From Sulfolobales archaeon HS-7 (GTDB taxonomy: Archaea; Thermoproteota; Thermoprotei_A; Sulfolobales; Sulfolobaceae), in NCBI GenBank assembly GCA_019704295.1, contig AP024596.1, positions 1,792,001-1,856,000 on the forward strand: a stretch of 64,000 nt of DNA, written 5' to 3'. A program made the translations under genes and the position numbers. The notes under the pieces are model-generated. The model did no database searches. It saw nothing but the letters and a program-made list of their open reading frames with translations, and was not told the DNA's origin. Every line of letters starts with the position of its first letter. Positions within the stretch are counted from its first letter, which is position 1. Shown here one piece after another: positions 10,694 through 15,322 of this stretch.

Positions 10694-11137
10694 GTGTCTC
10701 AACAAGCTATTTCTCTTGAGGAAGTGTTAGCAGCCGCAGAACAACTTAAAGCGTATATTGAGAATTTACAGAATGTCCTTAATGAATTGGGGGAAAGACT
10801 AGAGTCCATTACCTCCTCTAAGGAGGCAATAGCCGCTATTCCCAACAAAACCGATTACATAGTGTCTCTGGATAAGAGAGGATATGCTCTAGCTAAAGTT
10901 ACTGGGTTTAATATAGATAAGATCTACGTTTACTTAGGACTTAACTATTATGCCTTTGCCCAACCACAAGACGTCATTAAGTTGTTAGATAGGGAGGAAG
11001 AAGATGTAAAGAAGTCCATAGAATCAGTGCAGGGGGAACTAGCTAAGGCAGTAAATGAATACAATAGAATCAGTGCAATTCTTCAGCAGGCTAGAGAGAG
11101 TTTGGACTCAGAAGAAGAAGAACCGAAAGGTGCCTAG
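10694..11137 (+). CDS. pfdA: Prefoldin alpha subunit
   Basis: Coiled coils around a DKIYVYLGLNYY hairpin; conserved position before ftsY. Confidence 0.9.
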   Translation: MSQQAISLEEVLAAAEQLKAYIENLQNVLNELGERLESITSSKEAIAAIPNKTDYIVSLDKRGYALAKVTGFNIDKIYVYLGLNYYAFAQPQDVIKLLDREEEDVKKSIESVQGELAKAVNEYNRISAILQQARESLDSEEEEPKGA

Positions 11138-11139
11138 TT

Positions 11140-12109
11140 TTGTTTCGATAAAATAAAGAAAGCCTTTTCTAGATTTTCTGATTCGATAAGGAAAGACGAT
11201 ACAAAAGAAGAGAATAGTGTACCACAAGATAGCAGAGGAGTTTTCGATTTTATTAGATACAGAGAAATTAATAGTGATAAAATAGATTCTACAATAGATG
11301 AAATAAAGGAAGAACTGATCGAGAGTGACATAACATTAGACACTTTGGAGGTAATAAGTAACAGATTAAAGTCTGAACTAGTGGGAAAAAAAGTAAAAAG
11401 AGGAAGCGAAAGCGAAATAATTATATCATCATTAAGAAACGTTGTAAAAACGATCCTTGAGAGGAGCACGTCCACTGAAGACCTTTTAGAGAAAATAAAG
11501 AATTCGCAGAGACCGTTTGTGATTATGTTTTTTGGTGCAAACGGTGTAGGGAAGACAACAACAATAGCTAAGGTCGCTTATCTGCTAAAGAAAAATGGTA
11601 TGACATCCTTAATAGCCGCTACTGACACGTTTAGAGCAGCTGCACAGGAACAGTTAGAGTATCATGCTAATAAGTTAGAAGTACCTCTCATTAAGGGTAA
11701 ATACGGGGGAGATCCATCAGCCGTCGCATTCGATGCTGTAGCTTCCGCTAAAGCTCGAAGATATGACGTTGTATTAATTGATACCGCAGGTAGAATGCAT
11801 AACGATAAGGACCTAATTGAGGAGTTGCGAAGGATGGTTAAAATAGTCCAACCGCAAGAGAAAATATTAATAATAGACTCACTGGCGGGCTATGACGCTT
11901 TGGAACAGGTAAAAGCTTACGACAGGGCAATTAATTTCACTGGACTGATCGTGACCAAAGCCGACGCAGATGTAAAGGGAGGAATAATTCTTTCTATAGC
12001 TGCAGAGTTGGCAAAACCTATATATTATCTTGGGATAGGTCAGGATTATAATGATTTAGTAAAATTTTCTCCTGAATGGTTAATACCTAAGCTACTCCCA
12101 AATAATTAG
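11140..12109 (+). CDS. ftsY: SRP receptor FtsY; N-terminus has no in-frame start (TTG 11140 is one base out of frame)
   Basis: GANGVGKTT, DTFRAAA, DTAGR, TKAD; frame open from 11138 (FCFDKIKKAF...), 69 codons upstream of the track start. Confidence 0.95.
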
Positions 12110-12140: not shown

Positions 12141-12335
12141 ATGGCAGAGCAGGGTGGGGATCTTAAGAAATACTTCAGTGGGTTAAGGGACGGATGGAAA
12201 AGGATATTATCAGTATCAAAGAAACCAGATAGAAAGGAATTTTCATTTGATCTGAAGATAACTCTGTTAGCAATAGCGGTTGTTGGGATTATAGCATACC
12301 TAATTCAATTAGGTCTTTCCCTAGTTTTTGGGTGA
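12141..12335 (+). CDS. secE: Protein translocase SecE/Sec61-gamma
   Basis: WKRILSVSKKPDRKEF plus a TM helix. Confidence 0.9.
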   Translation: MAEQGGDLKKYFSGLRDGWKRILSVSKKPDRKEFSFDLKITLLAIAVVGIIAYLIQLGLSLVFG

Positions 12336-13321: not shown

Positions 13322-13968
13322 TGTTTGATGAGGGTAATGTTAAGAAAGCAATAGAGCAGGCATTATCACGGGAAAATAATCCCGAGAGGAAATACTTACA
13401 ATCGGTGCAAATTGACGTAGTACTTAAGGATATAGATATGAAGAAAGGTGAGGTAAAACTAAGAGAATCAGTAGTTTTACCTAATAGACCCTCTAAAGAG
13501 AGAAGAGTATTTGTTATTCCTACCATAGAACAACTTGAGAAAGTTAAGGAGTCTAAACCCGCTACGATTATGACAAAGGACGAGCTTCAGAAACTCCAAG
13601 GAAACAAAAAGGTGGCAAAGAAAATTGCAGCTAGACATGAGTGGTTTTTGATAGCTCAAGACTCAATGGCATTAGCCGGTAGGGTGTTAGGACCTGCATT
13701 GGGGCCTAGAGGTAAATTTCCTATTCCAGTACCGGGTAACGCTGAAATGAGTGAATTAGTAGATAGGTATAAAAAGTCAACTATAGTGAAAACGAAAGAT
13801 CAGCCTCACATTCAAGTTTTCGTGGGAACAGAAAACCAAAGCGTTAACGAACTTTACGGAAATATTGAGGCGGTTATGAATGTTATTGAGAGCAAGATAA
13901 GAGTAGAGTTTATAAAACTACTTTACGTGAAGACGGACATGGGTAAACCACAGGTGATAAGGAAATGA
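13318..13968 (+). CDS. rpl1: 50S ribosomal protein L1
   Basis: GRVLGPALGPRGKFP, VKTDMGKP. Confidence 0.95.
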   Translation: MMFDEGNVKKAIEQALSRENNPERKYLQSVQIDVVLKDIDMKKGEVKLRESVVLPNRPSKERRVFVIPTIEQLEKVKESKPATIMTKDELQKLQGNKKVAKKIAARHEWFLIAQDSMALAGRVLGPALGPRGKFPIPVPGNAEMSELVDRYKKSTIVKTKDQPHIQVFVGTENQSVNELYGNIEAVMNVIESKIRVEFIKLLYVKTDMGKPQVIRK

Positions 13969-14954
13969 TGACTGAGAAGAAAATTCCTAAATGGAAGCTT
14001 GAAGAGGTAAATGAGCTAGAAAAACTTCTAAAAGAAAACAAGGGATTTATAATCGCTTCGGTGGAAAGTTTTCCTGCAGATAAACTACACGACATTAGAC
14101 GAAGGTTAAGGGGAAGGGCTTTACTTAAGGTAACTAAGAATAGTCTAATGGATATAGCATTAGAGGAAGCGGGGATTAAGAATGAGGAGATCCGGAAATA
14201 TTTAACAGGTCCTAACGTAATTATATTTACTAGCGAGAATCCGTTCCTCTTAGATTTGGAGTTATCGAAGAATAAGCTCAGGAAATTCGCTGTGGGAGGA
14301 GAGAATGCTGATGAGGACGTAATCCTGCCGGCAGGAGATACAGGTATAGCGGCAGGTCCTATGTTAAGCGTTTTTGGGAAACTGAAAATCCAGACTAAAG
14401 TTCAAGACGGAAAAATACATATAGCTAAAGATACGGTAATTGCGAAAAAAGGGGAGAAAATACCTCAGGAGATAACTCCGATTTTACAGAAGCTTGGTAT
14501 TCAGCCTGTATACATTCAACTTAAAATTAAGGGTGCTTACTACGAAGACATAGTAATTAACGGAGAAAATCTGCACCTTAATATCGATGATTATAGAATG
14601 AACGTTATAAGCGCACATCTATTCGGGAAGCAACTGGCAGTAGAAATTTCCTATCCTGCGCCAGAGGTATTAGACGAAATTATACTGATAGATGTAAGAA
14701 GGGCGATTAGCCTAGCTTCAGAATTGGGTTACGTGACGCCTGAAACAGTTCGACCTATCCTGGTTAATAGCGCTGTTAGGGCCATGGTACTAGCGTCTTC
14801 AATTAGTAATAAGGTCGACTTAGGAATTGAACTAGCAAAACCACAGGAGAAAAAGGAAGAGAAGAAGGAGGAACAGGAAAAGAAACCCGAAGAGGAGAAG
14901 AAAGGTCCCAGTGAAGAGGAAATAGCAGGGGGACTTGCGAGCCTCTTCGGATAA
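13965..14954 (+). CDS. rpl10: 50S ribosomal protein L10 (P0)
   Basis: KVTKNSL, PAGDTGIAAGP, acidic tail ending GLASLFG. Confidence 0.95.
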   Translation: MMTEKKIPKWKLEEVNELEKLLKENKGFIIASVESFPADKLHDIRRRLRGRALLKVTKNSLMDIALEEAGIKNEEIRKYLTGPNVIIFTSENPFLLDLELSKNKLRKFAVGGENADEDVILPAGDTGIAAGPMLSVFGKLKIQTKVQDGKIHIAKDTVIAKKGEKIPQEITPILQKLGIQPVYIQLKIKGAYYEDIVINGENLHLNIDDYRMNVISAHLFGKQLAVEISYPAPEVLDEIILIDVRRAISLASELGYVTPETVRPILVNSAVRAMVLASSISNKVDLGIELAKPQEKKEEKKEEQEKKPEEEKKGPSEEEIAGGLASLFG

Positions 14955-15320
14955 AAGACTTTTTAAGAGAGTATGTAATGAAAAATAGGTAGGTGTAATA
15001 TATGGAGTACATATACGCTAGTTTACTGTTACATTCTGCTAAGAAGGAAATAAGTGAGGAGTCCCTGAAAAACGTTCTTTCAGCTGCGGGGATTACTGTT
15101 GACGAAGTAAGAATAAAAGCTTTGGTAGCTGCTCTTAAGGAAGTAAATATAGACGAAGTTCTAAAGAATGCAACGGCAATGCCAGTAGCAGTGGCACAGG
15201 CAGCGCCTGCACAGGAGAAAAAGGAAGAGAAGAAGGAGGAACAGGAAAAGAAACCCGAAGAGGAGAAGAAAGGTCCCAGTGAAGAGGAAATAGCAGGGGG
15301 ACTTGCGAGCCTCTTCGGAT
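14842..15320 (+). repeat. 111-bp perfect direct repeat (14842-14952 = 15210-15320) encoding the shared L10/L12 C-terminus
   Basis: Base-by-base identity including synonymous positions. Confidence 0.95.
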
Positions 15321-15322
15321 GA
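15002..15322 (+). CDS. rpl12: 50S ribosomal protein L12 (P1)
   Basis: [20 protein letters not shown]...GLASLFG. Confidence 0.97.

Follow-up and report, generated by a model that had tools for sequence, protein, structure and literature searches.

An out-of-frame start of ftsY conserved in the Sulfolobaceae and its probable translation by a +1 ribosomal frameshift at codon 2

How is the SRP receptor FtsY translated in an archaeon whose ftsY frame holds no ATG, GTG or TTG until well inside the gene? The question is raised by the window, a stretch of 64,000 nucleotides from Sulfolobales archaeon HS-7 (contig AP024596.1, positions 1,792,001 to 1,856,000), in which a start-like codon with a well-placed Shine-Dalgarno (SD) sequence lies one base out of frame with the protein.

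The ftsY junction in the window

The genome is a complete-contig assembly of 2.15 Mb from a deep-branching member of the family that includes Sulfolobus, Saccharolobus, Acidianus and Metallosphaera. Its ftsY is intact and single-copy and lies in an operon with the order aIF6, rpl18a, pfdA, ftsY, secE, spt5, rpl11, rpl1, rpl10, rpl12. The junction comprises the following features.

10694..11137, plus strand: pfdA (prefoldin alpha; PF02996, E 1.3e-18), the 5' neighbour, whose final codons hold the ftsY SD
11128..11132, plus strand: Shine-Dalgarno AGGTG, 7 nt 5' of the start, a complement of the anti-SD-like GGATCACCTC present in this genome
11135..11137, plus strand: pfdA stop TAG, which closes the FtsY frame 2 nt ahead of the start (read from the sequence)
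11140..11142, plus strand: TTG, putative near-cognate start codon in frame 0, from family comparison
11143..11146, plus strand: TTT-C, proposed +1 shift site (UUU to UUY, tRNA-Phe reading both; TTT invariant in 47/47)
11140..11151, plus strand: frame-0 mini-ORF M-F-R-stop (TTG TTT CGA TAA), from the sequence
11144..12109, plus strand: FtsY coding frame (+1); with an initiator Met the product would have 322 aa and start MFDKIKKAF
11144..11191, plus strand: N-terminal amphipathic helix of FtsY, homologous to the in-frame MFDKLK starts of other Sulfolobales
12141..12335, plus strand: secE-like gene, next in the operon 3' of ftsY

An earlier note on this DNA had placed AGGTG at 11128-11132, TTG TTT CGA TAA at 11140-11151 and the FtsY frame from 11138 onward, and re-reading gives the same layout. 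From 11138 the frame reads FCFDKIKKAF and is open for 323 codons. Its first ATG, GTG or TTG is indeed the TTG at 11345, codon 70, inside the N domain and within the SRP54_N match (residues 40-91). CGA, described in that note as a minor Arg codon, makes up 5% of the Arg codons of the genome, the commonest being AGA.

The protein is an SRP54-type GTPase with an N domain (PF00448, E 1.3e-72; PF02881, E 8.3e-7), and its best PDB matches are 5l3w and 5l3s. It carries the M-F-x-x-L helix, aligning from residue 2 of the in-frame relative P0078. The helix has a hydrophobic moment of 0.77-0.82, ranking 2nd and 5th among the 311 windows of this calculation. The A/alphaN1 region of S. acidocaldarius FtsY has been implicated in membrane interaction (bioRxiv 2022.04.13.488184).

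Annotations of Sulfolobaceae FtsY (P0001-P0066) either place the start against the SD, giving M-I/N/S/V-C-F, or cut the protein to 248-356 aa. Public proteins open MICFDRLKKAF or MNCFDKIKKAF (P0023, P0026), so that the odd '..CFD.LKKAF' beginning given in the earlier note does exist. A shift at codon 2 would explain why databases show either a fictitious MxCF start or an N-terminus cut short. Recombinant FtsY produced from such annotations would be incorrect at the N-terminus, in a helix tied to membrane binding. No FtsY entry was found in the published supplements searched. Further along the operon, Rpl10 (window positions 13965-14954) and Rpl12 (15002-15322) share an identical C-terminal tail of about 35 residues, which suggests gene conversion.

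Conservation and coding constraint in the Sulfolobaceae

Of the 47 family genomes, 44 supplied the junction, two having no match and one being cut by a contig end; with three metagenome contigs of the family, 47 ftsY rows were compared. SD-N6/7-(TTG/CTG/ACG)-TTT-YGA, followed by FtsY in the +1 frame, is present in 44/44 Sulfolobaceae genomes with an intact junction and in the three contigs. An SD score of 4-7 at the YTG and TTT as codon 2 are common to all 47 rows, and TGTTT is invariant. The out-of-frame layout is confirmed by sequence comparison as real and conserved, far beyond chance.

The start-like codon is TTG in 32 of the 44 genomes, CTG in 11 and ACG in one, each a single base away from ATG; neither ATG nor GTG was ever seen. 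On the tree, its first base changes only five times, mostly by transitions. The pfdA of the same loci begins with ATG in 38 of 41 resolved cases. This pattern is suggestive of selection against ATG and GTG at the ftsY start but does not prove it.

Other parts of the junction vary. Codon 3 is CGA in 27 of the 44 genomes and TGA in 17, with at least seven switches on the tree, and CGA-TAA occurs in just 8/44. From the window, a conserved SD-NTG-TTT-CGA-TAR had been predicted; the SD, the start-like codon and TTT are kept, and CGA-TAR is not. The frame-0 ORF, 2-18 codons long, is not conserved in length. The pfdA stop sits 1, 2 or 5 nt 5' of the ftsY start, in the FtsY frame in 17/44 genomes (window included) and in another frame in 27/44, and the type of stop codon varies. 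The next in-frame NTG of FtsY lies 3-165 codons downstream, at no position shared across the family.

Outside the family, an in-frame start of the same FtsY N-terminus is found in 99 of 101 other Sulfolobales (TTG 42, ATG 33, GTG 24) and in 24/24 further genomes. The shifted family forms a single clade in the FtsY tree (SH-aLRT 100), which indicates that the layout arose once and never reverted in the sampled genomes, though deletion of one T would revert it.

Two out-of-frame ftsY starts were met outside the family, in separate clades: TTG TTT CAA in G003 (locus L026) and TTG TTT CGG in G138 (L123). Each is known from a single draft assembly, and they may represent independent origins or assembly errors. 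In the 79% complete draft G161 (L062), ftsY starts at ACG, and its coding frame, closed by a stop, is open only from CGT onward.

Where reading in the FtsY frame begins can be judged from the kind of variation. Codons ahead of the TGT have no conserved meaning and some are stops. The third base of this apparent Cys codon shows no change on the tree and TGC is never seen, whereas 42 invariant two-fold sites within ftsY, taken as a control, change 3-16 times on the same tree; kin are not independent, and the comparison is a tree-based count of changes, not a P value. TGC accounts for 41% of the Cys codons in the genome of the window and would be expected were the codon real, so its absence argues that the TGT is not read as Cys. 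Starting with the Phe codon, the differences among genomes are synonymous when read in +1 (TTC/TTT, GAY/GAR, AAR/AGR) and radical when read in frame 0 (Arg or stop), which indicates that Phe and all that follows are read in the +1 frame. The YGA of codon 3 is forced by the F-D/E encoded in that frame.

An upstream frame-0 ORF in which YTG would serve as a Leu codon was tried and rejected: there is no conserved SD-led upstream start, and 10 of the 47 rows have none whatever. TTG and CTG together make up 19% of Leu codons, which also counts against this use of YTG. It appears that FtsY cannot be made from one frame, a conserved in-frame start being absent, and the shift site, at which re-pairing is possible, is kept at the nucleotide level beyond what the protein needs.

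rbkR, the proposed slip and its rivals

A scan of the genome of the window sought long frames whose SD-led start is out of frame by one base and whose second codon allows re-pairing. Two convincing cases emerged, ftsY and G000:C1:1970414 (+) (L291:1915-2575; family loci L293-L339). The latter is rbkR, a MarR-type HTH joined to a CTP-dependent riboflavin kinase (PMC5397151), and lies directly 3' of taw1. The rbkR of 22 family genomes out of 47, spread over 8 genera, opens with SD-YTG-AAA-AG; the protein lies in the +1 frame and lacks an in-frame NTG ahead of a conserved Cys. The remaining 25 start in frame, mostly at ATG. Mapped on the FtsY tree, the frame state switches at least four times. 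Of the 22 shifted genomes, 19 have AGA as codon 3. The TGA at the rbkR start doubles as the taw1 stop in 20/22 of them, which accounts for part of the conservation of the site; in G174 and G175, taw1 ends two codons earlier, yet YTG-AAA-AG is kept.

Two further candidates were discarded. ATG CTG TTT CGT was considered as the rbkR shift site, but the conserved site is TTG AAA AG, 21 nt upstream. A HAD-family gene (G000:C1:148410) also shows TTG AAA AG, but its family matches begin at an in-frame Met. Pattern scans of five genomes found no third shifted gene.

The taw1 gene adjoining the shifted rbkR (G000:C1:1970106-1970417; taw3 is at 714521-715036) helps make wyosine on tRNA-Phe. Wyosine has been tied to frameshifting at U-rich sites (PMC5009743). 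The proximity of taw1 to a shifted gene may be a coincidence.

In both ftsY and rbkR, the SD is spaced for initiation, the start codon is near-cognate and the tRNA of codon 2 is cognate in either frame. The layout of ftsY fits the following course of events. The SD in the pfdA tail would position the ribosome, probably through termination-reinitiation (PMC7531240), and the ribosome would start at the weak UUG, CUG or ACG, then accept Phe-tRNA at UUU. Part of the time, the M-F peptidyl-tRNA would re-pair one base on, with the cognate UUC or UUU, most plausibly during the first translocation. Translation would then go on in the FtsY frame, giving an M-F-D/E N-terminus, and non-shifted ribosomes would stop within 2-18 codons. 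As a likely effect, a ribosomal-protein operon would yield SRP receptor at a constant low level.

From these comparisons it is judged probable that the Sulfolobaceae express ftsY through a +1 ribosomal frameshift at codon 2 that is conserved in the family. Broadened to take in an initiation-coupled variant yielding the same protein, the statement becomes very likely. The central proposal of the earlier note, a conserved out-of-frame start needing a +1 shift at UUU-Y to give M-F-D/E, is thus upheld at the level of the layout (44/44). Its proposed trigger, a slow CGA codon as in influenza PA-X, is not: codon 3 is UGA in 17/44 genomes, switches repeatedly and is forced by the protein, and rbkR uses the commonest Arg codon, AGA. 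Since codon 3 may be a stop, a rare codon or an abundant one, the trigger common to both genes is not a hungry A site. The idea of a recoding switch that limits the SRP receptor survives in part; a regulated switch lacks support, and a constitutive limiter of FtsY dose would fit better, with regulation possible.

The shift must be partial, because some in-frame genes begin SD-TTG-AAA-AG (n=4 and n=1 in two scans) and ftsY genes of other families have in-frame NTG-TTT-CGN starts. The slip codon UUU follows the SD at a distance of 9-10 nt. No conserved stimulatory RNA structure was found at the junction (consensus fold energy 0, mean z 0.05). A frameshift-suppressor loop was found neither in the initiator tRNA, whose loop is a normal 7-nt one, nor in tRNA-Lys. 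tRNA-Phe was not located in the genome of the window, tRNA-Phe, Tyr and Cys being uncalled by ARAGORN; the ARAGORN tRNA-Phe(aaa) at G000:C1:2094112-2094201 (-) resembles a tRNA-Glu(CUC) with a D-arm intron. In bacteria, UUU_Ynn is intrinsically prone to +1 slippage (PMC5009743), and +1 shifts in E. coli arise most readily at codon 2 (PMC6335274).

The alternative that survives best is a frame reset at initiation, in which the initiator tRNA is weakly paired on the near-cognate codon and the first aminoacyl-tRNA binds out of frame on UUY (or AAA), making the start in effect four bases long. The product would be the same, a weak start would be required and codon 3 would be irrelevant. Starts are solely TTG, CTG or ACG in the 47 ftsY and 22 rbkR rows, as this reading expects, and ATG prevails in pfdA and in the in-frame rbkR alleles, while 57 of 99 outgroup ftsY have ATG or GTG; the freedom of codon 3 agrees with it as well. 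The skipped base should then be free, yet it is the first base of codon 2 (T in 47/47, A in 22/22), as re-pairing predicts. Moreover, TTG was probably a common ancestral start already (42/99 in the outgroup), and the normal loop of the initiator tRNA offers this reading no help. A reset of this kind is considered unlikely.

Translation might instead start in frame at a non-canonical or downstream codon, with no shift, at the annotators' ATA or GTG, at UGU, at a Leu or Ile codon 5 or at the first in-frame NTG. Curated and automatic annotations use such codons, and FtsY without residues 1-72 retains part of its in vitro activity (bioRxiv 2022.04.13.488184). In-frame CTG and ACG starts also seem to be present in the genome of the window: three genes without an early ATG, GTG or TTG (G000:C1:1562411, 1201066 and 1114419, all on the minus strand) have an SD-led in-frame ACG or CTG, which suggests near-cognate starts. 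Nevertheless, no spacer separates the annotated ATA or GTG from the SD, and many genomes have a stop, GTA, TTC or TCT in place of this codon; in G161 the frame is not open before CGT, and the scattered downstream NTG offer no conserved start. F-D/E-K/R would be left untranslated, yet it shows coding-type conservation. We regard such a start as very unlikely.

Very unlikely, too, is an altered mRNA, read in frame after transcriptional slippage, base-deletion editing or removal of a bulge-helix-bulge (BHB) intron. Short homopolymers do occur at both sites (TTT/TTTT and AAAA), and Crenarchaea splice a BHB intron out of cbf5 mRNA, which is a precedent. The runs are just 3-4 bases, far shorter than known slippage tracts; no conserved BHB intron of the cbf5 type or consensus structure was found at the junction, and two unrelated genes would need to lose a U and an A, respectively.

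Stop-codon readthrough from pfdA or taw1 into a fusion protein is highly improbable. It draws on the pfdA stop being in the FtsY frame in the window and in 17/44 genomes, and on the taw1 stop being in the rbkR frame in 20/22; against it, pfdA ends in another frame in 27/44 with a variable stop codon, G174 and G175 have two in-frame stops ahead of rbkR, and the SD and YTG would go unexplained. The unshared NTG positions speak against the downstream start, and these observations against the PfdA-FtsY readthrough, that the earlier note had named as possible refutations. A further worry of that note, an assembly error, is practically dismissed by the identical layout in 44 independent assemblies, many of them complete, and in metagenome contigs, as is a pseudogene by the intact, single-copy ftsY.

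Relation to known frameshifting and significance

The codon-2 shift proposed here would work like a programmed +1 frameshift at UUU_Y, outside the PA-X and prfB classes. In bacterial prfB (RF2), an SD lies 3 nt ahead of the shift codon. ftsY resembles prfB in its upstream SD, its pyrimidine-rich P-site codon, an A-site UGA in 17/44 genomes and an essential trans-frame product. It differs in that its SD, 9-10 nt ahead of UUU, is spaced for initiation (6-7 nt), the stop is not conserved and there is no evident feedback on termination. The UUU_CGN shifts of influenza PA-X and amalgaviruses (PMC3498833, PMC5009743) find a counterpart in the UUU_CGA of 27/44 ftsY, including that of the window, but the A-site CGN is not conserved (CGA 27, UGA 17), CG is forced by the +1 protein, the gene is cellular and the shift falls at the start rather than mid-gene.

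At UUU_Ynn in E. coli argI and Yersinia YopN-TyeA (PMC5009743), P-site tRNA-Phe also moves from UUU to UUY with no need of downstream structure. In argI the slip is an error, whereas in ftsY an essential protein would depend on it entirely, and it would lie at codon 2, behind a near-cognate start, throughout the family. The codon-2 CCC-C shifts of E. coli (Gamper et al. 2015, as cited in PMC6335274) also involve a slippery codon after the start and the transition from initiation to elongation; there the shift is described as an error of tRNA-Pro suppressed by m1G37 and EF-P, while the Sulfolobaceae apparently make use of it, the tRNA being tRNA-Phe or tRNA-Lys.

Recoding in the same family is known from fucA1 of Saccharolobus solfataricus (PMC8211752), which is unlike ftsY in being a -1 shift with a heptamer and stem-loop, placed mid-gene in a dispensable enzyme of narrow distribution. 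A 2021 review of archaeal recoding (PMC8211752) gives fucA1 as the sole demonstrated cellular frameshift and +1 shifting in one virus only, with no mention of FtsY or of a cellular +1 case. No prior report of a frameshift or start-codon anomaly in Sulfolobus FtsY was found in the largely open-access literature searched. A +1 slip of this sort would therefore be, within the reviews searched, so far unreported for a cellular archaeal gene.

A wider proposal is tentative and on balance doubtful. The Sulfolobaceae could possess a general start-coupled recoding device, composed of an SD, a near-cognate start as part of the mechanism and a re-pairable codon 2 (YUG-UUU-Y or YUG-AAA-A), in which the frame would change in the first elongation cycle. 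It would determine how much is made of two or more housekeeping proteins, FtsY and RbkR among them, and might respond to tRNA modification, e.g., wyosine. A frame change at codon 2 leaves almost no upstream ORF, and frameshift screens would be expected to miss it; more cases may exist.

If true, the codon-2 shift would be a cellular archaeal +1 frameshift in a universal gene, fixed across a family that holds genetically tractable crenarchaeal models. It would also represent a natural, selected use of codon-2 slippage, until now studied as an error.
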